DNA of 64,000 bases from Blastocatellia bacterium (GTDB taxonomy: Bacteria; Acidobacteriota; Blastocatellia; UBA7656), in contig CAVSKO010000002.1 in the NCBI GenBank assembly GCA_963728545.1, forward strand, positions 2,924,477 to 2,988,476. Direction: 5' to 3'. The notes below the pieces were generated by a model, which was not told the origin of the DNA, did no database searches, and worked only from the letters and a program-made list of their open reading frames with translations. Made by a program: the position numbers and the translations under genes. Below are positions 4,618-49,700 of this stretch, in pieces. The stretch's first letter is position 1. The number at the start of each line of letters is the position of its first letter.

Positions 4618-6075
4618 CTATGTCTTTTTCTTTTTTTTGGGCTTAAATATATTTTTGATCTCCTCATAGCCTTTCTTAATCAGGTTCCCGTCTCTCCCTT
4701 TTTTACCTTCTTTATTGCTGCTTGCCTTCTTCGGCTCTTTAGCCGAGGTATTCGATTGCGCCTGCTCAGGCGGTGGAGGAGTGTTTGCCTGCGGTTGAGG
4801 CGGGGCCGCCTGATCCGCAGGCTGTGCGGCGTTTGGATTGGTCGCAGCAGGCGTTTGCGGTGGCGTCGCTTCGCTCGTTCCCTTGTTGACAAGCGCGAGC
4901 GTCCCGAGCACAAGCCCAATCAAGATCACCGCCGCTGCCGCGTAATGCTTCCAGGTGAATTTTCCCGGTGGAGGTGTTGCCGCTTTCTTTTCGGCTTCAA
5001 GCGGGATGACCTGCCGCACGCGCTCTTTCGCGCCCTCGCCTGCTGCGCGTTCATCCACAGCCGGTTGAATCGGCTCCTCCGGTTTATCAGCCGGGGCCGC
5101 CAGCTTCGGCGTGGTGACGACGGTCTCCTTGTCAACATACATGTCTTCGTCGGGCTTCGTCTCTTTCGGCACGGCTTCTGCTGATACGGGACTGGCGAGC
5201 GGAGAACTGACCCGCGTTACAGGCGCGGCGTAAACAGGCGCGCTGTCGCCCAGCGGAGCAGTCCCGCCTTTCATGCTTGCCAAAAGCTCTACTTGAAAAG
5301 CGGTCGCCTTTTGAAACCTTGATTCGGGGTTCTTTGCGAGCGCGCGCATGATGGCCTGTTCCGCCTGCTCGGGAATGTATGTGAAATTTCTCGGCGGCGG
5401 CGGCGGGTCTTCAATCTGAGCCTTCATCAATTCGAATTCGCTCTTGCTTTCAAAAGGCACGCGGCCCGTCAGCATCTCGTAGAGCAAAATCCCTGCCGAG
5501 TAAATGTCTGATCGCGCATCGGTTTCTTCGCCCCGGACCTGTTCGGGCGACATGTATTCGATAGTGCCTACGATATTTCCTTGCCTGGTCATGCGCGAAG
5601 TCCCAAGCACGCGGGCTATGCCGAAGTCCATCACTTTCACAATGCCCGTGTCGGTCAGCATGAGGTTGGCGGGCTTTATGTCGCGGTGGATGATTCCGAG
5701 CGAGTGCGCGTGCTCCAGGCCATCCAGGGCGTGGCAAAACAGCGCGATAGCCTTCTCGTACGGCAGAGGGCCGGTCCTGCGTATCATATGATCGAACGTC
5801 TCGCCGCGAACGAACTCCATGACCATGAAATAGTGCTCGTCTTGATGTATGAAATTATAAACAGTGGCGATGTTGGTATGATTGAGCTTTGCAAGGGTCT
5901 TGGCTTCGGTGCGAAAACGCTCGACGACGTTCGGCTGGTTGGCAAGTTCCGAGCGCAGCACTTTGATGGCCACCTCGCGCTCCAGCATCTCGTCAATGCC
6001 TTTATAGACCGCGCCCATCCCGCCTTCGCCTATCTTTTCAATTATCTTGTATGTCCCGACTACTTTCCCGATCAT
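4618..6075 (-). CDS. Membrane-anchored Ser/Thr protein kinase (Hanks type)
   Basis: GEGGMGAVYKG glycine loop, VAIK, HRDIKPANLML, DFGIAR and SPEQ motifs. A Pro/Ala/Gln-rich linker precedes one TM helix (AAAAVILIGLVLGTLALV) and a low-complexity Lys-rich tail. An A8 tract lies in the coding strand near the stop. Confidence 0.85.
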   Translation of the reverse strand: MIGKVVGTYKIIEKIGEGGMGAVYKGIDEMLEREVAIKVLRSELANQPNVVERFRTEAKTLAKLNHTNIATVYNFIHQDEHYFMVMEFVRGETFDHMIRRTGPLPYEKAIALFCHALDGLEHAHSLGIIHRDIKPANLMLTDTGIVKVMDFGIARVLGTSRMTRQGNIVGTIEYMSPEQVRGEETDARSDIYSAGILLYEMLTGRVPFESKSEFELMKAQIEDPPPPPRNFTYIPEQAEQAIMRALAKNPESRFQKATAFQVELLASMKGGTAPLGDSAPVYAAPVTRVSSPLASPVSAEAVPKETKPDEDMYVDKETVVTTPKLAAPADKPEEPIQPAVDERAAGEGAKERVRQVIPLEAEKKAATPPPGKFTWKHYAAAAVILIGLVLGTLALVNKGTSEATPPQTPAATNPNAAQPADQAAPPQPQANTPPPPEQAQSNTSAKEPKKASSNKEGKKGRDGNLIKKGYEEIKNIFKPKKKKKT

Positions 6076-6218
6076 TTCCAGACCTCCGATTAAAAGAATC
6101 GGTCGAATCTCTGTTGAATCATCTGAAGAGAAATGCGCCTACGGCAGACCCCATTATTAATCTTAGAGGCCCGCCGTGTAAATACGCTGTTGTCGGGTAG
6201 GGTAAAAGTGAACCGGCG

Positions 6219-9146
6219 TCAGTTTATATTCAAGATAAAGGCTGCGGAAGACTCTCCGTTCGAGTTGACAATTTTCAGTGTGTGCTCGCCTCCTGAAAAT
6301 GTTATGCGCTTTACGACGAACGTACCGTTCTTGAAGCTGACGTCAAGGTCTCTCCCGTCAATGCGAAGCCGGGCTGCCGCATCAACCTTTTCTGCGTAAA
6401 CGGTCAGCTTCTTCTTTTTCTTTTTGTACACGACATCGATTATGCGCGGGGCATTTTCAGGATCGCTCACTTTTATTTGCAGAGTCGCCGTAGCGGTCTG
6501 AGAGTCCTGGTCTCGAACGGTAATGCTCGCGCTGAATGTCCCTGAAACGGAAGCGGCCCCGGTTATAGCGCCCGTGGCAGCGCCCAGCGCAAGCCCCGCC
6601 GGTAGACCGCCGCCCGTGACTGCCCAGGCGTAAGGCGCGGTCCCTCCACTGGCATTAAGCTGATAATTGAAAACGGCGCCTTTTACTGCGTCGGCGGGAG
6701 AAGCGATTGCAAGCGAGAGCGGCACCGGCACTACGATTATCGAGAGCGCCTTTCTTGAGGAGCGTAGCTCGATGTCGGTCACGTTGACTGTAAAGACGAA
6801 GCTTCCAATCGCCGTGGGATTTCCGGAGATTGCTCCGGTGTCGGAGTTGATTCCGAGTCCGGCGGGCAGCGCGCCTGCGACAATGCTCCAGGTGTAAGGC
6901 GGCTTCCCGCCCGTCGCCACGAGTTGTTGCGTGTACGCGGCCCCTTTCACGACAGACGGCAGCGATGATGTCACCAGATCGAGCGGAGCAATCACGTTTA
7001 TAGTTATCGTTTTTTGTGCGGCGCGAGACAGCGAGTCAGTGGCCTGCACCGTCATCGAGTAACTGCCCGCAGACGCGGGCGCGCCCGACACCAGACCTGT
7101 TCCGGAATTCAAAGTGAGTCCCGGCGGAAGCGATCCGCTTGCGAGCGACCAGGTATAAGGCGGTGCGCCTCCGGTCGCACTCAACTGGTAATTGAAAGCT
7201 GCGCCCTTGACACCCCCCAGCGTCGCCGAGCCGCTTATCGCGGGCGTGCCAACATCGGAAACGTTGATGGCGACGTTAGCCGACATCTGGCCGAAGAACC
7301 CCACGCCTTCCTGAAACGGTTGCCATTGGAAATTGTATGTGCCCGGCGTCTGAGGAGCGGTAGCCGTAAAAGTGGCTTCAAGATGTTGCCCCGGAGCTAC
7401 GCTGGAGCTTATGAGCGGAACACGGTCTGCTCCCCACGTCGTGTTGTTAGGCGGATTCTGCGAGCCTAACCTGAACCCGCCCGCGCCGTCCCACGCTTGC
7501 GCGCCGGTGTTGAGCCATTTCAACGTCACGCTGAACAACTGACCCGTTTGCAGAGTGGTCGGCACGGTTTGAGAGACGAACTGCGAATCGAAATTCGGCG
7601 TGGAACTTGGCCCTACGGTGAGAGTGAGAGCTTTGTCTGCCGTATCTCCGTTGCCGTCCCTGACGCGCACGGTGAAGGTTGCGGTTCCGTTCTCCAGCGG
7701 TGTGCCCGCGACGATGCCGCTCGATGTGACAGTCACTCCTTGAGGCGGGCGGCCCAACTCAGGGCGCAGGCTCCAGATGTAAGGCATCGAGCCGCCGCGC
7801 GCCGCCAGCACTTGAACGTAAAGCAGGTTGGGCGTGGCATTGGGCAAGGTCGAGGCGGTTGTGACCTCAAGCGGGCGCGTGCCTCCGTTTTCCACCGGGT
7901 AGACGTAAGCGATGCCGTTCGCGTCGTCCGCGCGTATGGAAGCGCAACGACCGTCGAAATGCGCCGTGCCAAACATCGTGGCGTCGATGTATTGCGAATG
8001 GCCCAATCCGAGCGCGTGGCCTAGTTCGTGCGTGGCGACCTCGCGAGTCTTACAATGATCGCTGAAGCTACAGGCGGAGTAAGGGTTGAAAGAGACAAAG
8101 CCGCGTATAGCTTTATAAAAAATTGTCCCGTTGATGTTCTTGCTCTGAGCGGTAGTCCAGTCAAGCCCGCCCAGAGCTATGATGCCGGCGCAGCCGGGAT
8201 CCGGCACAAAACTGTTGTCGCAGTTGTTAAAGACTATGGCGTTTATCCCGCCGTTGTGACTCGTGCAGGTATTCGTCGCGCCTCCGTTGACCACGCGCAG
8301 CGCGCAGCCTGAGACGCTCGACCATACGTTCATCGCGGCAGTGATGTCTTCGGCTATCTCGGCATTAGGCGCGTTTTCGGGGTTTACAAAAAAGACTACG
8401 GGCTGATTGTCATCAGGCTCGAACCACCGGGCAGGATTTGATGGGGGAAGCAGCGTGAACCTGGGAAAAATCTTCCCCCGCGCGGCTTCGCGTTTATATT
8501 CCGGCGGCTCGGCGCGCAGAGGCGTGTCGCTGTAATAAGTCTGTTCGTGCGTTTGCGAGCGCCCCCAGTTAGCCGCAAGCCTCGACCGCACCATAGCGGT
8601 GTAGGCCGATAACTCCATACGATTCGTAATTGTGCCGCGCGTGTGACCGGCTGCCGACAGGGCTTGAGTGCTATTATTGTTTACCGAGCCAAGGTCGCGG
8701 ATGGCGTATTTGTTTCCGGTCTGAGGGTTGACGGTTATTGAGAATTTACCGAGCATCAACTGGTGGACGCGGAGGCTCCCATCCGGCCAGGTCCCTAAAT
8801 AGAGGAGCACCTGTTCGCCGGTCTTGAAGTCAGGCGTGCCGAAGATGATGCTTCCGCGCTCGCCCACCTGGCCGCCCGCCTGCTTGAGGACGATGCGGCG
8901 CTCGTCGACCTGGCCTTTGAGAACTTCTTGAACGCGAACGGTGATGTAAGTAAAGATGCGGCCTTGCTCGTCCAGGCGGCTTCCGACAGAGAGGACTTTA
9001 CCTGTTATGATTGCGCGAGCGCCGACTATTAAATCGTCGTCGTCGGGTAATATATAAGTAGTCGAAGAGGCAGACCCGGCGCAGCCCAGAATAACGGCTA
9101 TCAGCACAAGCGATTTGAGGACAATGCTCTTACAGGAACGTTTCAT
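6219..9146 (-). CDS. Secreted zinc metalloprotease (metzincin motif) with repeated putative Ig (He_PIG-like) domains
   Basis: Signal peptide, then HELGHALGLGHS (HEXXHXXGXXH). The C-terminal half carries at least three repeats of the type GAAFNYQLSATGGAPPYTWSLASGSLPPGLTLNSGTGLVSG. A KKKKKK run sits near the C-terminus. Confidence 0.7.
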   Translation of the reverse strand: MKRSCKSIVLKSLVLIAVILGCAGSASSTTYILPDDDDLIVGARAIITGKVLSVGSRLDEQGRIFTYITVRVQEVLKGQVDERRIVLKQAGGQVGERGSIIFGTPDFKTGEQVLLYLGTWPDGSLRVHQLMLGKFSITVNPQTGNKYAIRDLGSVNNNSTQALSAAGHTRGTITNRMELSAYTAMVRSRLAANWGRSQTHEQTYYSDTPLRAEPPEYKREAARGKIFPRFTLLPPSNPARWFEPDDNQPVVFFVNPENAPNAEIAEDITAAMNVWSSVSGCALRVVNGGATNTCTSHNGGINAIVFNNCDNSFVPDPGCAGIIALGGLDWTTAQSKNINGTIFYKAIRGFVSFNPYSACSFSDHCKTREVATHELGHALGLGHSQYIDATMFGTAHFDGRCASIRADDANGIAYVYPVENGGTRPLEVTTASTLPNATPNLLYVQVLAARGGSMPYIWSLRPELGRPPQGVTVTSSGIVAGTPLENGTATFTVRVRDGNGDTADKALTLTVGPSSTPNFDSQFVSQTVPTTLQTGQLFSVTLKWLNTGAQAWDGAGGFRLGSQNPPNNTTWGADRVPLISSSVAPGQHLEATFTATAPQTPGTYNFQWQPFQEGVGFFGQMSANVAINVSDVGTPAISGSATLGGVKGAAFNYQLSATGGAPPYTWSLASGSLPPGLTLNSGTGLVSGAPASAGSYSMTVQATDSLSRAAQKTITINVIAPLDLVTSSLPSVVKGAAYTQQLVATGGKPPYTWSIVAGALPAGLGINSDTGAISGNPTAIGSFVFTVNVTDIELRSSRKALSIIVVPVPLSLAIASPADAVKGAVFNYQLNASGGTAPYAWAVTGGGLPAGLALGAATGAITGAASVSGTFSASITVRDQDSQTATATLQIKVSDPENAPRIIDVVYKKKKKKLTVYAEKVDAAARLRIDGRDLDVSFKNGTFVVKRITFSGGEHTLKIVNSNGESSAAFILNIN

Positions 9147-9751: not shown

Positions 9752-10627
9752 TTACTTTCGCCGTCTCGTAGTCTTCGTATCGTCCGTGCCCGGCTCAAGC
9801 GTGCAGATAGAGCCGTGTCGCTTGATTCTCAGGTAGACCGATTCAAAGACGCGGAACGGATGATTCATGTGCTCTGCGCCCAGGTAGGCTACCGTTAGAT
9901 CCTGGGCTACGGCCAGGTCGAAGTTCTGCGAGCCGGTCGCAACGACCATACCGTACCCGTCTTTAATCAGAGGCGATTGATAAACGCCGTCGGTGATGAG
10001 CTGGCGGATGTGCTCTATTTCAAGCACTCCCGTGCCGGGATGGACCTGGTGCATCTGCGTATAGAGCGTCGGGCTTACGACCATCGCATAAGGCCCATAA
10101 AATCCCGCCTGCACGAGCGTCTGCGTAGCGTCTACGGTGTCTTGAAACGCATTGCCCGGCTCGGTCCAGTCGCGGCGCGTCAGCACGTGGCGGCCTTCGA
10201 CAACCATCAACCCTTCGTACCCCATCTCGGCGCTGCCGTTGAATATCAGGTCGTCTTCGGCGTCGGCGCAAAAAGCGGCCGCGCCCGCCGCCGCCGAAGT
10301 GTCGAGCGGCGTGCCGCTCTGCCGCGCAGTTTCGATGTCTCGCCAGTGGAGAACGAAGTCTTTGTAGATCAGCGGAATAATTCCGCTCTCCCGCCGCACG
10401 GAGCGGACGGGGTCGGACTCCTCCTCGCCGAGCAATCCTATGCGGCCAATCGTAGTGCCGGAGAAATGATCGTGAACGATAGTCTGTATGCCCGGGCCGA
10501 GCGGGCCGTGAAGGTCTACGATGCGGCGGCCTACCAGGCGCTTGCGCGCAACGTCTATCACTACCTGATTTAGATTTTCCCACTCTTGATCGTTTAGCGG
10601 GTTTTCTTCGTGAGCAAAGATGGGCAT
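9752..10627 (-). CDS. encA: Family 1 encapsulin nanocompartment shell protein (EncA/linocin-M18-like, HK97 fold)
   Basis: The N-terminus MPIFAHEENPLNDQEWENLNQVVIDVARKRLVGRRIVDLHGPLGPGIQT matches M. xanthus EncA (MPDFLGHAENPLREEEWARLNETVIQVARRSLVGRRILDIYGPLGAGVQT). The match continues through IPLIYKDFVLHWRDIE, GVLEIEHIRQLITDGVYQS, MNHPFRVFE and ICTLE. The track ORF begins at a TTG at 10637-10639. The ATG at 10625-10627 (MPIF…) is preceded by GGAGGAGAGG and aligns with the EncA N-terminus, so I take it as the start. Confidence 0.85.
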   Translation of the reverse strand: MPIFAHEENPLNDQEWENLNQVVIDVARKRLVGRRIVDLHGPLGPGIQTIVHDHFSGTTIGRIGLLGEEESDPVRSVRRESGIIPLIYKDFVLHWRDIETARQSGTPLDTSAAAGAAAFCADAEDDLIFNGSAEMGYEGLMVVEGRHVLTRRDWTEPGNAFQDTVDATQTLVQAGFYGPYAMVVSPTLYTQMHQVHPGTGVLEIEHIRQLITDGVYQSPLIKDGYGMVVATGSQNFDLAVAQDLTVAYLGAEHMNHPFRVFESVYLRIKRHGSICTLEPGTDDTKTTRRRK

Positions 10628-10640
10628 CCTCTCCTCCAAT

Positions 10641-12229: not shown

Positions 12230-12354
12230 TAGTGATATTAGCGGCCCGAAGGCTTCGCATACAAGCTCAGGCTTGACTGTAGCATCGGGTCACAACTAGG
12301 CTTTCTCTGGCTTCTTCGGACAGCCCCCCTGCGAGAGAAGAAAGAAGGACGGTT

Positions 12355-13920
12355 ATGAGTTTGCACACGGGCGATAAAGCGTTCATCTCCCCGTTCGGGT
12401 TCAACGACGCGGATAAAGAAGAAAAGATTCTCCCGCAACTTTACCTGCGCGAGACGGGTTTCAACCGCCAGGCGATCGATCCTTTAGTCAGCGTGATAAT
12501 AGGCCGCCGAGGCTCGGGCAAAACGGCGCTCGCTCAATACTTGAAATTCGAACAGGAAGATCGCTATGACGTCTATGTAGACATAGACGAGCCGGACACC
12601 TACAGCCAGATTCTTCTGGAGCTTAGCAAGAAAGTAGACCACAACGCCGCGCTCAACGTCGTTGACGACGTGTCGAAGATGTGGGAGCTTGCTTTCTGGA
12701 CTTCGTTGATGTCCGAAGTGCTTGAGATCAACGGCATAGAATCCGCCGACGACAAAAAGAAGATTCAAAAATACCTGACCAGCGTAAACGTCCGGGCGGG
12801 GCGCGGCACCCAGGTCATTCGCACGGTCTTTAAGGCGCTGGCCGAGTTCGCAGCCGAGCGCGCGGGCGCGGTCGTCGATCTCATATTCAAAGTAAACGAC
12901 ATACTAAAGTCCGTAGAGTTTGAAGAATCAAAAGAGGCGATAAACCGCTACCTCGAACGCGGCCACAAAGCGGTAATAGTCATAGACACGCTCGAACAGT
13001 ATGACGTAAGACGGGCCGAGATGCAGCAGGCGCTGGGTGCGATGCTGCACGCCGTAACTCAATTCGCGCTCGGCAAAGTTCATCACAATATCCAGGTCAA
13101 ATGTTTTCTGCCGGGCGAGATAGTGCCTTACCTGTTGGAGTCCACGATTCAGAATATAGGCAAGACGTTTGAATTTCCCGTCTATCTGCTCTGGCGTCCG
13201 AAAGACCTGCTCAGGCTTGTCTGTTCGCGATATTACTATTTTCTAAAACAGGATTTCCCCGACGTGGCAAAGTCGATCCCGAAGGTGAACTGGGACAGCT
13301 ACTCTGATGTCCGAAACAAGATATGGGACCGCTTCTTCCCGGCAAAGATACGCAACCGGCACGGCAGAGAAGAGGATTCGTTTCAATATATAATTCGCCA
13401 CACGCAGCTCCGGCCCCGCCAGATCATCTGGCTGTGCAACTCGATTGCGCAACTCGCCTATGACCGAAGAGTATTTCCCAAATTCGAAAATGAAGACGTC
13501 GTTCGCGGCGTTCACGGCGTCGAAGAGTTGATAGCGAGCGAAATATTGAACTCTTACAATAAAGTTTATCCGGCTATGCGCCAGATACTGAATTGCTTTC
13601 GCGGCGAGTCGAACGTCTTAGATCGGGCGGCTTACCTGGACAAGCTCGCGCCGCGCACCAGAAAAGCCTGGCCCGAAAGCATGCCCTACGACAGAAGCAC
13701 GCTTTGGCAGATGGTATCGGAAATCGGCTTCCTCGGCTCGGTCGTAGAAAAGACCGACCGCTTTTACGAAGCCCAATTTGAATATACGACGCGCGACCGC
13801 CTCATCTTAAACGAAGACGAAGAGTGCGCCATCCATCCCATTTTTTACAAGCTCTTTGGGATCAAAGCCGTCAAAGAGCGACCCGTTTACCCGGTAGGCC
13901 CGGACAGGTTAGATGATTAG
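12355..13920 (+). CDS. P-loop NTPase of unknown function (Walker A GRRGSGKT; candidate Walker B VIVIDTLEQ)
   Basis: A 521-aa ORF with lower GC and more A/T-ending codons than its neighbours. It is an isolated single gene, divergent from the lptE operon and convergent with a phosphatase gene. I recognise no transporter or ABC signature. Confidence 0.6.
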   Translation: MSLHTGDKAFISPFGFNDADKEEKILPQLYLRETGFNRQAIDPLVSVIIGRRGSGKTALAQYLKFEQEDRYDVYVDIDEPDTYSQILLELSKKVDHNAALNVVDDVSKMWELAFWTSLMSEVLEINGIESADDKKKIQKYLTSVNVRAGRGTQVIRTVFKALAEFAAERAGAVVDLIFKVNDILKSVEFEESKEAINRYLERGHKAVIVIDTLEQYDVRRAEMQQALGAMLHAVTQFALGKVHHNIQVKCFLPGEIVPYLLESTIQNIGKTFEFPVYLLWRPKDLLRLVCSRYYYFLKQDFPDVAKSIPKVNWDSYSDVRNKIWDRFFPAKIRNRHGREEDSFQYIIRHTQLRPRQIIWLCNSIAQLAYDRRVFPKFENEDVVRGVHGVEELIASEILNSYNKVYPAMRQILNCFRGESNVLDRAAYLDKLAPRTRKAWPESMPYDRSTLWQMVSEIGFLGSVVEKTDRFYEAQFEYTTRDRLILNEDEECAIHPIFYKLFGIKAVKERPVYPVGPDRLDD

Positions 13921-13957
13921 AGAATGCTTGAGCGGCATTCTTACTCTTTAGGCTGAC

Positions 13958-14713
13958 TTACTCTTTAGGCTGAGGCGGCGGCGGCGGAGTCAGAGGCTCC
14001 GAGGTAGCAACGTCCGCTTCCTTCACGCCCGCAGGCGCAAGCGCCACTTTGGCCGGTTTTATCTTGTCGTAGTAATCGCGCACATAGTCTTTGATGGCCC
14101 CGTGACCCCACCGCGAGTAGTAGTCATAGTTCTTCATCTCGCGATAAACCTGGTCGTAATCCCAGCCATACTTGTTATAGCGATACAGAGCGCCTATTAA
14201 ACCCGTCCGATGGCGACCGCCCACGCAATGCACATAAACAGGCCCTTTTGATTCATCATTCGCAACGGCGAAGAATGCCGCGATCTGCTCATCACTCGGC
14301 CTCTTCTTATCACTCATTGGAATATTCACGTATAGCATTTGCGCAGCTTCCGCTCGCGGCTTTTCATAATCGGTAGGGTCATCGCGCAGATCGATTACCG
14401 TCTTGACGCCGAGCGCGGCAAGCGCCGAGTAATCATCCGGCTTCGGCTGTGCGCCCCTGTAGAAATAGTCGTCCATCCTGCCGAAGTTCTTTATTGTGAT
14501 ATTGGGAAAATCAGAAGGACCGGTTATATCCGTCGAGATGCCGCTGCTTGCGACTGTCTCTGACGGCGGCGGGTTGTTCGGCTCGCTTGCCGGATACCCG
14601 AGTGCGAAGATAATAAGCAACGCAAACAGGCCCGCTTTCCAGAGATCGACCTTAGAAAAGAGTTTTTGATCATCCTTTTTCATACCCAAGTCCTCCCCTG
14701 GGCATCGAGGCAT
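13958..14713 (-). CDS. Membrane-anchored protein tyrosine / dual-specificity phosphatase
   Basis: CX5R active-site loop HCVGGRHRTG. N-terminal TM helix and a C-terminal poly-Pro tail. Confidence 0.75.
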   Translation of the reverse strand: MPRCPGEDLGMKKDDQKLFSKVDLWKAGLFALLIIFALGYPASEPNNPPPSETVASSGISTDITGPSDFPNITIKNFGRMDDYFYRGAQPKPDDYSALAALGVKTVIDLRDDPTDYEKPRAEAAQMLYVNIPMSDKKRPSDEQIAAFFAVANDESKGPVYVHCVGGRHRTGLIGALYRYNKYGWDYDQVYREMKNYDYYSRWGHGAIKDYVRDYYDKIKPAKVALAPAGVKEADVATSEPLTPPPPPQPKE

Positions 14714-14899
14714 AGGCGCTCGAAATACTGCCCTGATTGTTTAACATACTCTTAACACGCCTTTAATATTATCAACTACCGTGCCATTACTATGCAGGTT
14801 AATGAGGGGGCGTGAGGCGAGATTGTGTCTTATGTGGATACAATTATTGCCGGCAAGTGTACGATCCGATAAAACCGATTTACATTGAATGTACGGGAC

Positions 14900-15040
14900 C
14901 GGAGAGACATCTCACCGCCGCAGAGGCACAGAGAACGCATATGGCCTATGATGTACTTCGCACGCGGCGGGGGGCGCAGAGCAGACGTTGGTTTTCTCTG
15001 CGCCCGCTCTGTGCTCTCTGTGTCTGCGGCGGTGAATCTT
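14900..15040. repeat. Family A long palindromic repeat, copy 1 of 3
   Basis: GGAGAGACATCTCACCGCCGCAGAGGCACAGAG…CTCTGTGTCTGCGGCGGTGAATCT. Two arms of about 65 bp form a long hairpin. Copies are at 38747-38861 and 56675-56836. Confidence 0.7.
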
Positions 15041-15113
15041 CTTTCATTCCCTTACACTCATAGCGAGGCCGGTCGCCCAGCCTCGCTTTCTTCACTCGCT
15101 ACCTGTTTTGAGA

Positions 15114-15596
15114 TTAGTTCAGAGCCTGCACCTTCTGGACTTTCTGGACAGCCGGGAGCAGGAATCTTGTTTCGCCCGATTCGTTATCGAAGATTTCAAT
15201 TGTCGGAATGCAATTATCCACAGCTCGCGTATCAGGAGTCCCGACGAACCTTACCTCTGCTCGTAAATTGGCGCGGTTGCTTCCTCGTCCTATTATTTCG
15301 TTGCCTCTCAAATCCAGGAACGCTGACTTGCCTGTGTCAATTTCATAGACCTTTTGAGATAGGATGTTGCCGCCGTCGTCTATGAATACCATCTCTACCC
15401 TGATGCAAGGAACAAACGCCCGGTCTTCCAGGTTTACCAGATTGATGCGAGCCGTCTGCGCTCTGGTGATGCCAAACATGCCTGTCGTCTTTGCGGAGTT
15501 AACGGCCGCTCCGGCGCTTGTTGCGCCCCACACCGCTCCTGCCGCTATGAGCGCGACCAGCGTTATCAATTTCAAGACTCTGTTTTGCGTTTTCAT
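15114..15596 (-). CDS. Hypothetical secreted protein
   Basis: Signal peptide MKTQNRVLKLITLVALIAAGAVWGATSAGA. I recognise no motif. Confidence 0.5.
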   Translation of the reverse strand: MKTQNRVLKLITLVALIAAGAVWGATSAGAAVNSAKTTGMFGITRAQTARINLVNLEDRAFVPCIRVEMVFIDDGGNILSQKVYEIDTGKSAFLDLRGNEIIGRGSNRANLRAEVRFVGTPDTRAVDNCIPTIEIFDNESGETRFLLPAVQKVQKVQALN

Positions 15597-15660
15597 GACT
15601 TTCTCCTTTTCGTAAGCTTTCGATTAATGGTTATCGGTTAACGAATTGGTTAGGCGGCGA

Positions 15661-16680
15661 TCATTGGGGAGGGCAATCGCCGGGACAATTCGTAGAGTTC
15701 TCGCCCGGCTCGCATTTGCCGTTTCCTGCTGTCGGAGGGCAATCGCCGGGGCAGGTCGCATTGCTTTCGCCGCGACTAACTTCGCACACACCGTCGCCGC
15801 AGTAGGGCGCGGGCAGCGGGGGCGAATGCGGCCAGAGTGAAGGCTCTCCATTGTCCCCGGTCACGAAGGGGAACCATATCGTCAGCACCCACTGTGTCCT
15901 GTCAAAGGTCTTTGCCCAACCCTGGTCGTCGAAGTGGTGTCCGAGCGCGGGCGAATTCTCAAGCGCCGCAAGGCTCGCGAAATCCGGTGTGGTCGGGTCC
16001 TGGGGAGCTATGCGGTTTGCGAAGTAGACGAGCTGCGCAATTTGCTCGTCTTTATTGTAGAGAAGCCACACACTGGTCAGCCCGCGCTGTTCGGCTTCGG
16101 CCAGGATCGCGTCCCATTTCTGATTGAGGATATTATTTTGGTTCTGCGCCGGGACGCTCCAACGCTCTGTTCGCACAATGATCCTGGTATCGATCTCATC
16201 CAGGTGATATGCCTCAATTACACGCCAGGCGTGATAATCGGGGTTGATGAATATCGGCCTGTCGAAGAAGTGCATGCCGTCGAGAATAAAGTCATTCTTG
16301 ACCCAATCTTTGTATTGCTCGGCATCGTGCTCTGTATCGAACAGGTAACGGCCCCCGCTCAAAAGGTTTCCCGTAGCAAAATCGATTCTGAGGGGCAGGT
16401 ACTTGTTCTGCATCCCGCGTCTTGCGGCCATATACATTCGGTCGCGCTCAATGAGCGGAGCCACCTGATTTAGCGGCAGGCTTGCGGGGAGCGCGAAATC
16501 GGCTGTGAACGCGCCCTTCGCCTTGACCTTGCCTACAGTTGAGTGCGGGCCATTATGATCTGCTGCTGTCGTAGAAATTGTTCCCGGCTTTACGGATGCG
16601 CCGACCGCCAGTGCGGAACAGACTATCAGGCAAAGCGCCAATCGCAATTTCCAACCGCTGATTCTTTGTGTTCTTAACAT
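15661..16680 (-). CDS. Hypothetical secreted protein with C-terminal Cys-rich repeats (CGDGVCE…CPGDC)
   Basis: Signal peptide. The C-terminus CGDGVCEVSRGESNATCPGDCPPTAGNGKCEPGENSTNCPGDCPPQ resembles the myxobacterial-type cysteine-rich repeat. Confidence 0.5.
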   Translation of the reverse strand: MLRTQRISGWKLRLALCLIVCSALAVGASVKPGTISTTAADHNGPHSTVGKVKAKGAFTADFALPASLPLNQVAPLIERDRMYMAARRGMQNKYLPLRIDFATGNLLSGGRYLFDTEHDAEQYKDWVKNDFILDGMHFFDRPIFINPDYHAWRVIEAYHLDEIDTRIIVRTERWSVPAQNQNNILNQKWDAILAEAEQRGLTSVWLLYNKDEQIAQLVYFANRIAPQDPTTPDFASLAALENSPALGHHFDDQGWAKTFDRTQWVLTIWFPFVTGDNGEPSLWPHSPPLPAPYCGDGVCEVSRGESNATCPGDCPPTAGNGKCEPGENSTNCPGDCPPQ

Positions 16681-17107: not shown

Positions 17108-17779
17108 CTATACCAGCCGGTTGAGAAGGGCTTTGGCTACGGCTTCCGAGCGGGTGTGGACTTGCAGTTTTTCGTAAATGCTTTTCACATGAAAGTTGAC
17201 TGTGTTGACCGATACGCCAAGTTCGGCAGCAGCCGTCTTATAATTGTGGCCTTCGACAAAGAGTTTTAGCAGGCGGGTTTCGTGCGGGGTCAACTCGTAA
17301 TCGGCGCGCTCCGGGGGGCGAATCTCTCGAAACAACGAGATCACGCGGCGAGCGACTTCCGGCGACATCGGAGCGCCGCCGCTGACCGCTTCTTTCAGGC
17401 TTTCAAGCAGCCGGGCGGGCGGCGTCTTCTTCAATAAATAGCCGCTTGCTCCTGCGCACATCGCATCGAATATGCGCTCGTCATCGTTATAGACCGTGAG
17501 CATCAGCAACAACATGTTGGGATAGCGCTCTTTCAAAACTTTGATGCCCTCGATGCCGTTCATTCCCGGCAGACCTATGTCGGATAGCACCACGTCCGGC
17601 AACTCAAAACCTATTTTTTCCAGAGCCTCTTCCATCGTGCGATAGCTCCCCGTGCACCTGAAGCCTTCGGTCCCGTTAATCAGAAAGGTTAAGCATTCGC
17701 GGATGTCGCGCTGGTCTTCGATGAGCGCCACCTTGATGGTGGAAGGAGTCGTGTCCGTTTTGCCTGTGTCGCTTGCCAT
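17108..17779 (-). CDS. Two-component response regulator, NarL/FixJ (LuxR HTH) family
   Basis: REC domain (…LSDIGLPGMNG…) plus C-terminal LuxR-type HTH (LTPHETRLLKLFVEGHNYKTAAAELGVSVNTVNFHVKSIYEKL). Confidence 0.85.
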   Translation of the reverse strand: MASDTGKTDTTPSTIKVALIEDQRDIRECLTFLINGTEGFRCTGSYRTMEEALEKIGFELPDVVLSDIGLPGMNGIEGIKVLKERYPNMLLLMLTVYNDDERIFDAMCAGASGYLLKKTPPARLLESLKEAVSGGAPMSPEVARRVISLFREIRPPERADYELTPHETRLLKLFVEGHNYKTAAAELGVSVNTVNFHVKSIYEKLQVHTRSEAVAKALLNRLV

Positions 17780-43710: not shown

Positions 43711-46700
43711 TCAATTTGCAGTCTGCTTCACGTTAAACTTTTTCCCGGCTATGGTTATCACCCCGTTTCGCCCCGTCCCTGTCGCATTCGGCTCGACCGT
43801 GTAGGTGATTGCCCCGTTGCCTATGCCGCAGCAATTCGACGTGATCGTGATCCACGGGACATCGCTCGTTGATTGCCACGCGCAACTTGCGCCCGCACTC
43901 ACGTTGATGATGCTCGCGCCTCCCGAGGCTCCAAATACGATGAACGACGGAGAGAGGGTAAAACTGCAAACGGGCGCGTTCTTTCTGTTTTGAGTGATAT
44001 TGAAGGTTTGTCCGGCAACGGTGATAGTCCCTGTGCGAGGTAGCGGATCGAAATTGTCTCTCACAAGGTAGGTCACGGCGTCGGGGCCCATGCCTGTAGC
44101 ATCCGAAGTTATAGTTATCCAGCTCGCGTTACTCGTCGCCGTCCAGCTACAGTTAGAAGGGGCTGTAACTTTGATGCTTCCCTCGCCGCCTGCGCCCGAG
44201 AAAAACTGGCTGGTCGGGAAGATCGGGAACGAAGCGGTACAACAGTTATTCAGCAAGACCGAGACGTTCGTTGAGACGAAATTCGTCACAGCCAGATCGA
44301 GCTTGCCGTCGCCTGAAAGATCGCCGACAGCAATGCCCTGTGGAACAGTCCCGGTGTCGAAACCGGTGGGCGGGCCAAAGCTGCCTGTTCCTGTGCCTGG
44401 AAGTATGGAGACTTTATTCAAGCTTTCAACCGAAACGGCCAGGTCGTTTATGCCGTCACCGTTTACATCTCCGACGGCGACATAGGAGGGATTGGCCCCA
44501 ACAGCAAAATTAGTAGCCGCGCCGAAGCTCCCCACCCCATCGCCTAACAGAACAGATACATTGCTTGAAGTGTAATTCGTCGTTGCCAGATCGCCCTTGC
44601 TGTCATTGTTGAAATCGCCTGTAGCAATACTGATCGGGTTGAACCCTACTATGAAACTGGACAGAGGACCGAAGCTTCCGGTCCCCGTGCCGAGCAGGAT
44701 AGAGACGTTGCTATTATCAAAACTCGATACGGCAAGATCCGCCTTGCCGTCCGAGTTGAAGTCCGCTACGGCGACTCCCGAAGGGCTCGCCCCGACCGCG
44801 ACATTAATCGCAGCCGCGAAGCTCCCGGTCCCCGTGCCGAGCAGGATAGAGACGTTATTTGAGGTGCTATTTACGACCGCAATATCCGCCTCGCCGTCCG
44901 AGTTGAAATCGCCGACCGCAACCGCGAGGGGATTCGTTCCGACGCCGAAATTTGTGGGTGCGCCGAACGTGCCGGTCCCCGTGCCGAGCAGGATAGAGAC
45001 GTTCGCGGAGTCGAAGATCGATACGGCCAGATCGAGATTGTTGTCATTGTTGAAATCGCCGACCGCAACCGCAGTGGGAGAAGACCCGGCTGCGAAATTT
45101 GCCGCAGCCGCGAAGCTTCCGGTCCCCGTGTTCAAGAAAATCGAAACGACCGAAGAGTCGCGGTTAGCAACAGCCAGGTCGAGGGCGCTGTCTGAGTTGA
45201 AGTTCCCCATAGCGACTCTGATCGGACCCGCGACGGCTCCGTAGTTGACGGCTGCGGCAAAGCTCGGCGCGGCGCAGGGACTGGCCTGTGACACGGTTAC
45301 GGTGTAGCTGCGACTCCCTTTGCAGCCGCCGCTATCGGTAGCGGTCACCGTGAAGGTGAAGCTGCCGGGCGCGGTAGGCGTTCCGGCAAGCGCGCCGCCC
45401 GAAGATAGCGTCAAACCCGTCGGCAAACCGCCGACCGACACTGCAAAGTTGTACGGAGGCGTGCCGCCGCTTGCAGTGATCGTCTGGTTATAGGCTGTGC
45501 CGACAGTTCCCGAAGGAAGCGCGAGCGGCGCGAGCGTGATTGAGGGACAGACCTGCAAGCAGGCCGAGAACTCGGAGCTGTTATTGCCGGGGTCCGTCGC
45601 TATGGCTGTAATCAATTGCCCCACAGGGACCGCCGTTGCGAGGGTGGCCTCGATAGCTGCTATCCCGTTGCCGTCGGTCATCACCGTCGTCGAGCCGAGC
45701 GGTGTCGCGCCTTCGCCGTGCATTGAGCTGTCGCACGATGTGTTTGAGAAGAACTCTACGACGAATTGAGTATTAGCCGCGCTGTTGAGAGTCCCCCGTA
45801 CTGTTGTACTGCTGCCGTTGTTAATTGCAGAGGACAAGACGGGGAAGTTCTGCAAGTTGTTCGGCCCCGAATCCGCATCCATCGGGTCGTTCGGCGTAAC
45901 CCCGTCGGCGCCGAGGTTAATGCCCAGGCCGCCGTTTGAATGGATCGAATCGCTGCGAATCAGATTGCCCGTGCCCGTAAGGATTTGAACTCCGCTGTCG
46001 CCATTGAAAGCGATAATGTTGCCCGCGCCGGGCGCGCTGCCGCCGATTGTGTTGTTACTCCCGCTTATTGAAATGCCGTCGCCGCCGTTGCCCAGCGCGC
46101 CTGTGCCCGCAACGTTTGTGCCGACATAGTTGCATTGGATCGTGTTGTTGCCGCTCGTATTAGTCTGGATGCCTCCGCCTCCGAAGCGGTTGATGACAAG
46201 CCCTTGCACGGTGCTGTTGCCCGCGTTTACGACAACCCCGATTGCGCCTGCGCCTGCGTTTGTGCCGTTTAATTCGATGATCGGCGTCGATGTAAATCCA
46301 GGTTGCGTCTTGCCGTCGATTATGACAGGGTCGGTGATCGCAGGCAGCGGCGAAGAGGGCGTGATCGTCTGTGCGCCTGTCCCTATGGAGAAGTTGATTC
46401 TGTTCACGCCCGCAAAGGCATTCGCCTGTTGAAGGGCCGCGCGCAATGTGCAGAAGCCCGTGCCGTCATTACAGGCCATATCGGAGAGGTTGTTGTCGCC
46501 CGCGTCGCCCGTCGAATTAACCACGAACGTGCCCGAAAAATTCTGCTTGCACGCGGAAAACTCGGAAGTGTTGCCCGCAGGGTCTGTCGCCGTCGCGGTG
46601 ACTACGTGACCGGCGGGAACGCTGCCCGCGAACGGAATGATGAATGACACGTTGCCCGTCGCATCGGTCGTGACATTCATCGTGCCTAAGAAGGTCTGCC

Positions 46701-49700
46701 CTTCGCCGTTTCCCGACCCGTCACAGCCCGGCTGTGAGAAGAATTCGAGCCTGAACGTAGTGTTTGCATTGCTGTTGAGGCTGCCCGTGACGGTGACGGT
46801 AGTCGTTAGCGATGAAGTAATAACGGGGAAGTTTTGCAGGGTGTTGGCTCCCAGGTCCGCGTCGCCCGCATCGTTCGGTGTGACGCCGCGCGTCGTCCCA
46901 TCAGGGCTTAAATCGATCCCAAGCCCTGTGTTTGAGAAGATAGAATTTGAAAGAATCCTGACGACTCCACCCGCGCGTACGAACACGCCGTCTTCGCCGT
47001 TGAAGGCTATCACATTGCCCGCACCCGCCGCAGTCCCGCCTATAGTGTTATTGCTCATTGCGGCAACCCCGTTAACGTGAACGCCGTTCATACTGTTAGG
47101 CAGCGGGCTTGCGCCGTCGGCTTTTGTGCCTATGAAATTGCCCTGCACGAGAATTCCTGTGCCACCTGGAAGGAATTCAATGCCGTTCTGGTTGTTGCCC
47201 GATATGACATTTCGGGCCGCAGCCACAGTTCCTCCGATTGTGTTGTTGGGCGCAGTAATGAGAATGCCGTTAATCGTGTTGCCTAGGTCGAGCGTGCCTG
47301 TAACATCCGTCCCTATGAAGTTGCCCTGAATGGCGTTGTTCTGCCCGATACCGACGAGGCCTATGCCTTGTTCATTATTGCCGGATATGAGGTTGCCCGC
47401 GCCCGCCGCAGTCCCTCCGATAGTATTGCCTGGACTGCCGATTATACCGACGCCGCTCCCATTGTTGCCCAGGTCGAGCGTGCCCGTAACGTCCGTCCCT
47501 ATGAAGTTGCCTTGCACGAGATTTCCGGTTGAGGTGCCGCCCATAATCTCTACGCCGTTACGGTTGTTGCCTGAAATTAAATTGCGCGCCGCGACCACAG
47601 TCCCGCCGATTGTGTTATTCGAGCCGGGGTTGATGAACACGCCGTCCATTGAGTTTCCGCGATCCAGGGTTCCTGATGAATCCGTTCCGATGATGTTGCC
47701 CTGAACTTGCGTTCCCGTGCTCGTGATTTCGATGCCGTGCCGCCCGTTGTCAGAGATCAAATTGCCTGCGCCGCCGGTTGTTCCCCCAATCACATTGTTT
47801 TGCGCAGCGACAAGCAGGCCATTATTACCATTGCCAAGTTCATTGATTCCGTTGGCGGCCAGACCAATGATGTTGCCTTGAACGGTATTTCCTGTCGCGC
47901 TTGCCCCGCCGATCTGAATGCCGTGAGAGCCGTTGCCTGAGATCACATTGCGCGCGGCTGCGGTAGTTCCCCCAATCACGTTGCCGGGCGCGTTGTTTAT
48001 ATTGATGCCTGCCGCGCTATTGCCCCGGTCGAGCGTGCCTGTGACATCCGTGCCGATAAGGTTTCCTTGCACCTGCGTTCCGCTACAGTTGCTGGTGATC
48101 ATTATGCCGTTACTTCCATTGGCGCATATGATATTGCGCGCCCCCGCCGTCGTTCCGCCGATAATGGTGTTGGGCGCATTTGTAATATCTATGCCGGAGC
48201 CCGAATTGCCTAAAGCGTTTGCGCCTGTGACATCCGTGCCTATGTAGTTCCCGCGCACAATGCTGCCGGCCCCCGGATTGATAACGATTCCCGAACCGGT
48301 ATTGCCGGAGATTATATTGCGCGCTGCGACAGACAATCCGCCTATGGTAGTGTTGTCGGCTGAGACGAACAGGCCGCCTAAGCCATTGTCTCTGCGTATA
48401 GTGCCCGTCAAATCCGTGCCGATATAATTGCCTTCAATCAACATGTTGCTGCCGAATGCCAGTTGAATCCCCCTTTGACTGAAGCGATTTATCACCAATC
48501 CGCGCACGGCGCTGTTGGCGGCTATTATCAAGAGTCCGTTCACGCCTGCGCCTGCGCCTGCGCCGTTCAGCTCGATAATCGGCTTGCCTGCAAACCCCGG
48601 CTGAGTTGTGCCGTCAATGAGGGTCGTCTCATTGACCGACGGCAGGGCTGAAGTCGGGGCGATTGTCTGCGCTCCTCCCCCTCCTATTTCAAAGGCAATC
48701 GTATTTGCGCCTGCGGTTGCATTGGACTGTTGAATCGCTGCCCGCAGCGTACAATTGCCCGAGCCATCGTTGCAGATTCCGTCGCCCAGGTTGTTGTCAC
48801 CCGCGTCGCCTGTTGAGGTGACGACAAAGAAACCGGTCGCTGAAGTGACTTGAACGCACGAAGAAAACTCGGAAGTGTTGTTTGCGGGATCGGTTGCCGT
48901 AGCGGTGATGAACCGGCCCGAAATGACTGTCGCGAAGGCTGTGAAGTTTATATTTGCATTGCCGCCGCCGTCGGTCAGGATTGTCGTCGAGCCGAAAAGG
49001 GTCTGCCCCTCGCCGTTGTTCGAGCCGTCACAAGCGCTGTTGTAGAAAAACTCTATAGTGAATGTCGTATTAGCCGTACTGTTGAGCGACCCCACGACGG
49101 TTGTGCCCGGCCCCGAAGCGGCCGAAGTCAACACGGGAAAGTTTTGTAGATTATTGGAACCCGTGTCGCCGTCTCCCGAATCGTTCGCCGTCACTCCCGT
49201 CGGCGCAAGGTTAATGCCCGGACCGGCGTTCGAGAAGATCGAATTCCCGCTTATGGAATTCCCTGTGCCGGTATTGACAAAGACCCCTGCGGCTCCGTTG
49301 AATGCTATGAGATTTGCAGCGCCGCTTACGCTCCCGCCGATACTGTTATTGCTTGCGAAACCGAAAATCGAGAAGCCGGTTAGAAAAACTCCGTGCGAGT
49401 TATTTCCGAGCGCAGAAGTCCCGTTCGCCTGTGTGCCGATAAAGTTGCCTTGCACTAAATTCTGATTGCTCGCGAATATCTCGACGCCGCCATGAGTGCT
49501 TGAGGTCGTGTTTCCCGAAATGACGTTGCGCGCGGCGGTCGTCGTGCCGCCTACGGTGTGGCTGTTTCCCTGAAAGAGGAAGACACCCATCTGAGCGTTC
49601 GGGAGGGCCGAGGTCCCTGCGGCGTTCGTGCCAACATAATTGCCCTGGACCAGATGTCCTGTCGCGCTGGTTCCATCTATCCGAATGCCTTCGTCGTTCG

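Follow-up and report, generated by a model that had tools for sequence, protein, structure and literature searches.

A Sll1717-family AAA+ ATPase beside lptE in Blastocatellia: a distant relative of the anti-phage protein DS-41 with a predicted ORC/Cdc6-like fold

We analysed a stretch of 64,000 nucleotides (nt) from contig CAVSKO010000002.1 of a Blastocatellia bacterium, hereafter the window, in which the listing of open reading frames (ORFs) contains a complete ORF of 521 amino acids (aa) on the forward strand at 12355-13920. Transcription of the gene diverges from that of lptE-holA and runs towards a convergent gene for a DSP-type tyrosine phosphatase. A first-pass annotation had described its product as a P-loop NTPase with no other recognisable domain. 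The ORF proved to be real, and the account of its content incomplete. On NF047389, the NCBIfam model for 'P-loop ATPase, Sll1717 family', the whole protein scores 213.9 bits (cut-off 75; E 4.7e-63), over aa 14-499 and profile positions 1-452 of 454, and a predicted structure adds a helical lid bundle and a winged helix. NF047389 was also matched by all 37 homologues in our alignment (32-92% identity), to which the conservation figures below refer. It is a sequence-defined 'subfamily' model named after Synechocystis Sll1717, with no function attached, and a literature search for 'Sll1717' found no paper naming it. The window protein is thus an addition to an already catalogued family, for one distant member of which, DS-41, a defence role has been shown.

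The protein carries the full Sll1717 motif set, consisting of an N-terminal PFG..E, GRRGxGKT, hhhhDxL[ED] and RHTQxRPRQ-I-LCN, all invariant or nearly so among the homologues:

12391..12420, + strand: N-terminal PFG...E motif, aa 13-22; P13, F14, G15 and E22 invariant
12502..12525, + strand: Walker A (P-loop) GRRGSGKT, aa 50-57; G50, R51, R52, G53, G55, K56 and T57 invariant
12970..12996, + strand: Walker B AVIVIDTLE, aa 206-214; D211 and T212 invariant, E214 at least 90% conserved
13192..13200, + strand: W280-R281-P282; W280 invariant, R281 and P282 at least 90% conserved
13396..13440, + strand: RHTQLRPRQIIWLCN, aa 348-362, sensor-2-like motif and family signature; Q351, P354, R355, Q356 and N362 invariant

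Both Walker motifs picked out in the first-pass annotation are intact, with key residues invariant or at least 90% conserved. The Walker B is a D-T-L-E variant in which the acidic residue at position +1, the canonical DE, is absent. It had also been stated that there was neither an ABC signature nor a transporter partner, and this holds: an LSGGQ-type signature is absent from the translation, and no transporter partner was found among the window neighbours. Pfam gave only sub-threshold P-loop or AAA matches (AAA_16, AAA_22, ORC-CDC6-like, nSTAND3, KAP). We rejected similarities to Zeta-toxin, KaiC/FlaH ('archaellum ATPase FlaH' in JGI names), AAA_22 and ABC proteins as confined to the P-loop. 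A sequence profile search of the PDB returned ABC, SRP54 and Ras matches at P-loop level only (E >=0.02), which are therefore uninformative on the fold.

DS-41 (code AAA2, WP_033812887.1, 502 aa) is a single-gene anti-phage system of E. coli, reported in the DefensePredictor study (Science 2026; PMC13092281) as one of 31 additional systems that its authors validated, and the plaque tables record a 1 to 3.6 log reduction against several BASEL phages (PMC13092281). DefensePredictor was built to find systems outside defence islands, and its authors list a remote HHblits match of DS-41 to AVAST Avs1B (PMC13092281). A protein 99% identical to WP_033812887 (P0121) scored 414 bits on the DS-41 equivalog model and 97.6 bits on NF047389. 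Members of the DS-41 clade score 379-414 bits on this equivalog model, NF053860 (DS41_1_antiphage), and many of them bear the NCBI name 'P-loop ATPase, Sll1717 family'. The DS41_1 model is in turn weakly matched by all 37 members of our alignment, the best at E 1.9e-13. Profile-profile alignment of the window clade with a 31-sequence DS-41 profile was collinear over 341 columns; a comparison with a single truncated DS-41 sequence (hhalign probability 35%) was too weak to use. In the aligned motifs PFG...E corresponds to NPFEHYTAE(N/T)E of the DS-41 clade, IDTLE to IDKLDE and RHTQLRPRQIIWLCN to SPRELIKLCD of DS-41.

The two proteins are of the same size, are both organised as single genes, pass the same NF047389 model and share one motif order, namely PF..E, Walker A, a D-x-L-[DE] Walker B and (S/R)PR(E/Q)LI-LC. 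They differ in that the retrieved DS-41 clade members, where named, come from Proteobacteria, with one in an integrase island, whereas the window branch is found on chromosomes, keeps its synteny and is strongly constrained. From the sequence comparisons we read the window protein and DS-41 as distant branches of one family, the window protein not being a DS-41 equivalog. The genomic settings of the DS-41 clade vary. The gene for a protein 86% identical to DS-41 forms a lone islet between the hyc and hyp operons, another clade gene sits between a TonB receptor and a LysR/MFS pair, and a third lies in an integrase/HNH/PIN-MazE island.

An AlphaFold2 model built from the 37-sequence alignment reached a mean predicted local distance difference test score (pLDDT) of 85.1 and a predicted template modelling score (pTM) of 0.86. 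It places, in order, an AAA+ alpha/beta core, a helical insert, a short strand 5, W280-R281-P282, a helical lid and a winged helix:

12592..12957, + strand: all-helical insert of about 120 aa, aa 80-201, between strand 2 (73-77) and the Walker B strand (206-210) of the model
13198..13554, + strand: helical lid, or C-terminal helical bundle, aa 282-400 of the model, pLDDT >90, carrying RHTQLRPRQIIWLCN
13576..13776, + strand: predicted winged helix-turn-helix (wHTH), aa 408-474, from DSSP on the model, pLDDT >90

The insert, the least conserved and most gap-rich region of the alignment, comprises helices 80-93, 99-124, 131-143, 151-168, 172-184 and 187-201 by DSSP. In the model R281 follows a short strand (276-277) and stands ahead of the first lid helix, making it a putative arginine finger. 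The lid is built from helices 282-300, 302-306, 316-327, 342-348, 354-370 and 379-400. The wHTH elements (helix 408-415, a strand at about 419-421, helices 427-438 and 447-457, strands 460-466 and 471-474) follow an a1-b1-a2-a3-b2-b3 order, and W439, G458 and G461 in this region are invariant.

A Foldseek search of the PDB ranked highest the N-terminal region of BrxC (9zll, 9zdx) and the archaeal ORC2/ORC1/Cdc6 proteins (1w5s, 1w5t, 2v1u, 1fnn). The statistics were modest (E ~1e-3, TM-scores 0.3-0.4) and AAA+ proteins dominated the matches. The Pfam ORC-CDC6-like model (PF24389) gave 18 bits on the window protein, below its 27-bit cut-off, and was weakly matched by 25 of the 37 window-branch members and 18 of the 31 DS-41-clade members. 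ORC/Cdc6 proteins are marked by a helical insert after strand 2, an arginine finger located at the strand-5 base, and a C-terminal helical bundle followed by a wHTH (PMC12839542). The model would supply each of these, with a strand-2 insert, an arginine at the strand-5 base, a C-terminal bundle and a wHTH, and Walker A and B, the latter in its D-T-L-E variant, lie on an AAA+ core. The insert differs in size, at about 120 aa against a short helix-extension-helix, and a role in replication initiation could not be inferred. For BrxC the likeness is in the N-terminal region, one of the best fold matches; the difference lies in the surroundings, as the BREX partners PglZ, BrxX and BrxB were not found near the gene.

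The first-pass annotation had also offered a STAND- or KAP-like label. The order of NTPase core, helical domain and winged helix does resemble a NOD module, and Sll1717-family variants carry an N-terminal kinase or zinc-ribbon much as STAND proteins carry effectors. The Pfam scores for nSTAND3 (18.4 against 27.2), NACHT (14.2 against 26.7) and NB-ARC (12.2 against 23.5), however, all fall below cut-off, as does that for KAP (PF07693, 14.2 bits against 20). The C-terminus is a lid and wHTH with no TPR, WD40 or LRR repeat sensor, and no transmembrane segment was found, the maximum Kyte-Doolittle value of a 19-residue window being 1.05. The Walker B (IDTLE or IDKLDE) and a 'PR..I..L.N' pattern may resemble KAP motifs. 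Because it has neither a transmembrane segment, as a KAP insert would provide, nor a repeat domain, the protein belongs to neither KAP nor classical STAND, and the label was dropped in favour of the nearest folds. The model predicts a soluble AAA+ ATPase with an ORC/Cdc6- and BrxC-like, STAND-related core, in which the helical insert is enlarged and which is followed by a lid bundle and, at the C-terminus, a winged helix.

The family is large and sparsely distributed. A HMMER scan of 1.84 billion cluster representatives (50%-identity clusters) returned 3,172 relatives at E<=1e-3, of which 660 reached E<=1e-30. The sub-branch of the window protein is small (43-93% identity), mostly metagenomic and about 35% identical to a large cyanobacterial/Chloroflexota branch. 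The spread is patchy, with RHTQLRPRQIIWLCN as the search pattern finding the family in 230 of 185,579 species genomes (~0.1%), a lower bound limited by that pattern, across at least 8 phyla. The chromosomal branch occurs in Acidobacteriota, Cyanobacteria and Chloroflexota. No homologue was found in a phage genome collection, and IMG/VR gave one weak partial match only.

Other branches are mobile or fused. The highest NF047389 score that we met, 291.9 bits, belongs to an 'ATP-binding protein' of 698 aa from the Sll1717 family, carried by 62 enterobacterial plasmids, of which 46 are conjugative. On E. coli plasmid CP057180.1 (locus L100, positions 6001-8097) it directly follows a Tn3-family transposase and resolvase, on E. 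coli plasmid NZ_CP121158.1 (L099, 6001-8097) it adjoins IS26, IS91, sul2 and tet(M), and on plasmids the gene has resistance genes, blaCMY-2 and tet(M) among them, in its vicinity. The protein has an extra C-terminal domain matching the PADLOC candidate PDC-M36A. Fusions to an N-terminal Ser/Thr kinase, of ~855-870 aa, were found in P0030, P0040, P0067, L013, L044 and L054, and the kinase domain scores highly against the PD-T4-6 and MADS6 models; P0013, P0014 and P0027 (575-580 aa) have an N-terminal CxxC...C zinc-ribbon-like extension. These N-terminal fusions suggest that the ATPase-wHTH module can drive a covalently attached effector. In Thermoanaerobaculia (L015, L021, L028, L029, L046) a multi-pass membrane protein of ~150 aa is encoded downstream, at a gap of -32 to +13 nt, and the pair is a possible two-gene variant.

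When the neighbours of 81 loci were clustered, no family-wide partner emerged; the commonest neighbour, at 14 of 81, reflects lineage synteny. Leptolyngbya/Phormidesmis-type cyanobacteria keep the order lysS-TetR-[gene]-Hpt-PII-pyrH, and in Anaerolineae the gene lies with citrate synthase, mdh and deoC. Of the 148 proteins flanking 37 diverse loci no more than 8 matched a PADLOC model at E<=1e-10, and the Pfam content of the set was metabolic or housekeeping. The window branch does not reside in defence islands. This does not exclude defence, since DS-41 relatives are also found solitary among housekeeping operons.

A foreign origin had been proposed for the window gene on the basis of low GC content and atypical codons, with many AAA, GAA and ATA triplets. 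The bulk GC is indeed lower, 0.523 against a mean of 0.564 (standard deviation, sd, 0.025) over 45 window ORFs. For GC at third codon positions (GC3), where the first-pass annotation had itself called for a difference from the genome, the gene has 0.663 and the 45 window ORFs a mean of 0.662 (sd 0.046), and because its GC3 equals the window mean the compositional case for foreign origin fails. The whole deficit lies at codon position 2, where the gene has the lowest GC in the window (0.337), and so it reflects amino-acid composition and does not indicate foreign origin; K, E, D, Y and F are over-represented in the protein, and A, G and T under-represented. By Kullback-Leibler (KL) divergence of synonymous codons the gene ranks 12th of the 45, matching genes of similar length, and the AAA, GAA and ATA fractions are each only ~1 sd over the per-gene mean.

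Further evidence on origin comes from the closest relatives. Copies 92-93% identical were found in two species-level Blastocatellia genomes (L006, L007) and in one contig of a farmland metagenome (L001), and in all three the gene adjoins lptE. The synonymous divergence (dS) between these copies and that in the window is 0.75-0.97, compared with 0.64-0.87 for the flanking genes. The ratio of non-synonymous to synonymous divergence (dN/dS) is 0.049-0.054, against 0.08 for holA, 0.12-0.13 for lptE and 0.145 for rpsT, and shows strong purifying selection. In its distances the window copy is the outlier and the other three lie close together, congruent with the tree of the left-flank genes. The shared site, a dS equal to the flanks and the congruent distances show long residence here and vertical inheritance from before the split of these genomes, and the synteny in three relatives, flank-like dS and dN/dS of ~0.05 mean that any acquisition is old. 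Outside the Blastocatellia clade the nearest homologues share 43-57% identity and have unrelated surroundings. Neither mobile-element genes nor repeats were found around the ATPase in the window, L001, L006 or L007. In the window, the flanking genes that we scanned held no integrase- or transposase-type domain, no tRNA-linked element was seen, and a repeat search gave no direct or inverted repeats bracketing the gene.

The first-pass annotation had anticipated a break in synteny beside lptE, where the gene might be missing from related genomes. The three relatives above keep the gene at this position, and a metagenome scan based on HolA yielded further loci (L086-L097) in which it is lacking. 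In L086 (HolA 89%, LptE 88% identical) a gene for a 339-aa protein adjoins lptE across ~190 bp and the ATPase is absent. The eleven deeper relatives (L087-L097, HolA 55-66%) keep the rpsT-(encapsulin)-holA-lptE block, and the ATPase was not found in the sequence beyond lptE, which extends up to 7.4 kb and is <1 kb in four contigs. When 8 of these eleven were compared with every window ORF, nothing beyond lptE matched the 64-kb window, which makes lptE a general synteny boundary. Absence from L086 and from the sequence beyond lptE in the deeper relatives also implies that the gene is dispensable.

In junction alignments the homology between occupied and empty sites stops just after a shared AAGCTCAGGCTTG on the lptE side and resumes at a terminator hairpin beside the gene for the 339-aa protein. 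Left-flank genes, rooted with three different outgroups, nest L086 within the ATPase-bearing clade at 97-100% bootstrap, a topology that by itself would imply loss of the ATPase in L086. The right-flank genes encode the 339-aa protein (15661-16680, reverse strand; 499-1515 in L086) and a response regulator (17108-17779, reverse strand), and in these, without an outgroup, L086 is the most divergent. This disagreement between the flanks points to homologous recombination with a breakpoint at the ATPase site, and the simplest reading is a single indel coupled to that breakpoint.

The gene had been said to sit alone between conserved operons. It is indeed divergent from lptE-holA, but the phosphatase on its other side is specific to the window and is not a conserved neighbour. 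The window-specific segment (13920-15660, ~1.7 kb) holds the phosphatase gene (13958-14713, reverse strand) and a 160-aa ORF (15114-15596, reverse strand), both lacking in L001, L007 and L086, in which the gene for the 339-aa protein directly adjoins the ATPase or lptE. The phosphatase is a DSP-type protein tyrosine phosphatase (PTPase), and PF22785, a PTPase model labelled 'polymorphic toxin system', matches it as well. Pfam returned nothing for the 160-aa ORF. Exactly at the synteny breakpoint there is a perfect tandem duplication of 17 nt, CTTACTCTTTAGGCTGA, at 13940-13956 and 13957-13973. Its second copy contains the last codons and stop of the phosphatase gene, and its first copy is in the spacer to the ATPase stop codon; the duplication may be the junction scar left by insertion of the phosphatase segment. 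Between the phosphatase gene and the 160-aa ORF we also observed a 25-nt inverted repeat (14912-14936 and 15011-15035, 84% complementary, arms 74 nt apart), within which a 15-nt hairpin is nested (14972-15005).

What the protein does is the harder question. By analogy with DS-41 we propose, with our confidence about evenly split, that this is an ATP-gated switch, able to recognise DNA or an invader protein and to oligomerise, and that it gives protection against phage. As a single-gene Sll1717-family protein it would act as an ATP-dependent switch rather than a motor, since a D-T-L-E Walker B lacking the acidic +1 residue suggests a slow, switch-like NTPase. The cue that it might sense in the ATP state would be an invader protein or else DNA, contacted by way of the insert and wHTH, and the putative R281 finger might mediate oligomerisation; by analogy the protein's role would be single-gene protection against phages or other invading DNA. 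The gene would have been inserted next to lptE before the radiation of the narrow Blastocatellia clade and inherited vertically since, with the one absence (L086) coinciding with the recombination breakpoint. The NF047389 model shared with DS-41, the Tn3-cargo and kinase-fusion branches, the patchy spread and the presence/absence polymorphism plausibly support a defence-type protein. The first-pass suggestion of a candidate defence-type ATPase therefore stands as a reasonable lead through that shared model, but not in the sense of a DS-41 equivalog.

Several results weigh against this proposal. On NF053860 the window protein scores 39.6 bits against a cut-off of 370, and over aa 12-100 only. 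The hhalign comparison with the DS-41 profile had a probability of 52% (E 1.5e-4) at ~16% identity, PADLOC gave the ATPase weak matches to candidate systems only, and no effector domain is evident in it. Switch behaviour, DNA binding and oligomerisation are proposed from motifs and a predicted structure, and anti-phage activity in the family is known from DS-41, not from the window branch, which it would reach by analogy. At 37 diverse loci the adjoining genes serve housekeeping or metabolism and defence genes are almost lacking, and the branch shows lineage-level synteny in Cyanobacteria and Anaerolineae. Purifying selection is tighter than on holA, lptE and rpsT, which is unusual for an arms-race gene.

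One alternative, which we regard as possible if somewhat doubtful, is a domesticated cellular ATPase. Its AAA+ switch would serve the host, either on DNA or in signalling, and immunity would be a lost function or one that it never had; it might take part in regulation linked to the chromosome or to replication, or provide the sensor half of a kinase pathway. The dN/dS of 0.05, lower than in holA, lptE and rpsT, the flank-equal dS and the fully native codon usage fit such a role, as do the stable positions beside housekeeping genes in three phyla and the near absence of defence-gene neighbours. The ORC/Cdc6-like fold with its wHTH is that of replication initiators, and the Ser/Thr-kinase fusions fit signal transduction. 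Yet the gene is missing from the equally close L086 and from the lptE-proximal flank of the deeper relatives, and is thus dispensable; it is scattered over phyla in ~0.1% of species genomes, its sister branches are transposon cargo, and anti-phage activity is the family's only functional datum (PMC13092281). DS-41-type genes are likewise found solitary among housekeeping operons, and so genomic context does not discriminate between defence and a cellular role. The chromosomal branch as a whole, being fixed beside housekeeping operons and slower to evolve than holA and rpsT, may not be a conventional mobile immune gene. More tentatively still, two natures are conceivable for it: a domesticated, DNA-binding switch of ORC/Cdc6-like type that serves the cell, or an unusually long-lived 'core' single-gene immune sensor. 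Such a sensor would have the ATPase-wHTH assembly as its own effector, which might for instance occupy or sequester the DNA of an invader.

Two further explanations seem much less probable. One is a stranded mobile-element function: the ATPase would be an ORC-like initiator or an accessory of a transposon, serving the element's replication, partition or target immunity. This is suggested by the initiator-like fold and by the position of the strongest NF047389 match (291.9 bits) after a Tn3-family transposase and resolvase on enterobacterial plasmids. We consider it improbable, as no mobile genes or repeats surround the ATPase in the window, L001, L006 or L007, a remnant would not stay at a dN/dS of 0.05 over a dS of ~0.8, and homologues are missing from phage genomes and essentially so from IMG/VR. 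The original idea of a recently imported defence gene with low GC and foreign codons between conserved operons fares worst and is very improbable. The bulk GC of 0.523 against 0.564, the solitary gene, the synteny break at the site and the 43-57% identity of the nearest homologues outside the clade, in unrelated contexts, are what speak for it. Set against these are a GC3 at the window mean and an ordinary synonymous-codon KL divergence, the same site in L001, L006 and L007 with a dS of 0.75-0.97 like the flanks and distances congruent with the flank tree, and flanks in which no integrase, transposase or tRNA-linked element and no repeat was observed; the truly window-specific segment is the phosphatase and 160-aa ORF downstream.

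For the window gene itself the outcome is mostly clarifying rather than surprising. What is new here is the fold assignment, the family-wide view and the corrected GC argument. DS-41, validated in 2026, belongs to a much larger family with a predicted ORC/Cdc6-like fold and winged helix, the branches of which include transposon cargo, kinase fusions and stably inherited chromosomal genes. K56, D211/E214, R281, R355 and the wHTH give a structural and mutational frame for this family. For annotation the locus carries a caution, in that low bulk GC here is a matter of amino-acid composition and the recently gained segment is the neighbouring phosphatase cassette.

Possible expression signals around the ATPase gene can be read from the sequence:

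12273..12302, + strand: candidate promoter TTGACT-18 nt-TAGGCT, inferred, within the 125-nt divergent spacer to lptE
12344..12349, + strand: Shine-Dalgarno-like GAAGGA, 5 nt before the ATG
13921..13941, + strand: hairpin AGAATGC-TTGAGCG-GCATTCT right after the stop codon, a possible terminator, inferred

The promoter-region block GCTTGACTGTAGC...AACTAGGCTTT is kept in L001, L006 and L007, and it is here that homology with the ATPase-less L086 stops; a purine-rich block, AGAGGGA, is the counterpart of GAAGGA in the same three relatives. Consensus scans for promoters and terminators around the gene gave nothing beyond chance: TTGACT...TAGGCT, the -10 element of which matches 3 of 6 positions, was not called, nor was the hairpin at 13921..13941.

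By Pfam the neighbouring genes encode Ribosomal_S20p (rpsT), a Linocin_M18 encapsulin, DNA Pol III delta (holA), LptE and the PTPase, and further out a LuxR-type response regulator and a PAS histidine kinase. The encapsulin gene (9752-10639, reverse strand) is wedged between holA and rpsT, with no cargo gene identified nearby. Its product shows 97.6-98.3% aa identity and a dN/dS of 0.014 in the two genomes measured. It is present in L006, L007, L086, L087 and L094-L097 and absent from the same gap in L088-L091 and L093. Elsewhere in the window a very large ORF of 2,673 aa (43711-51732, reverse strand) has an unusually high GC at codon position 2, 0.53.

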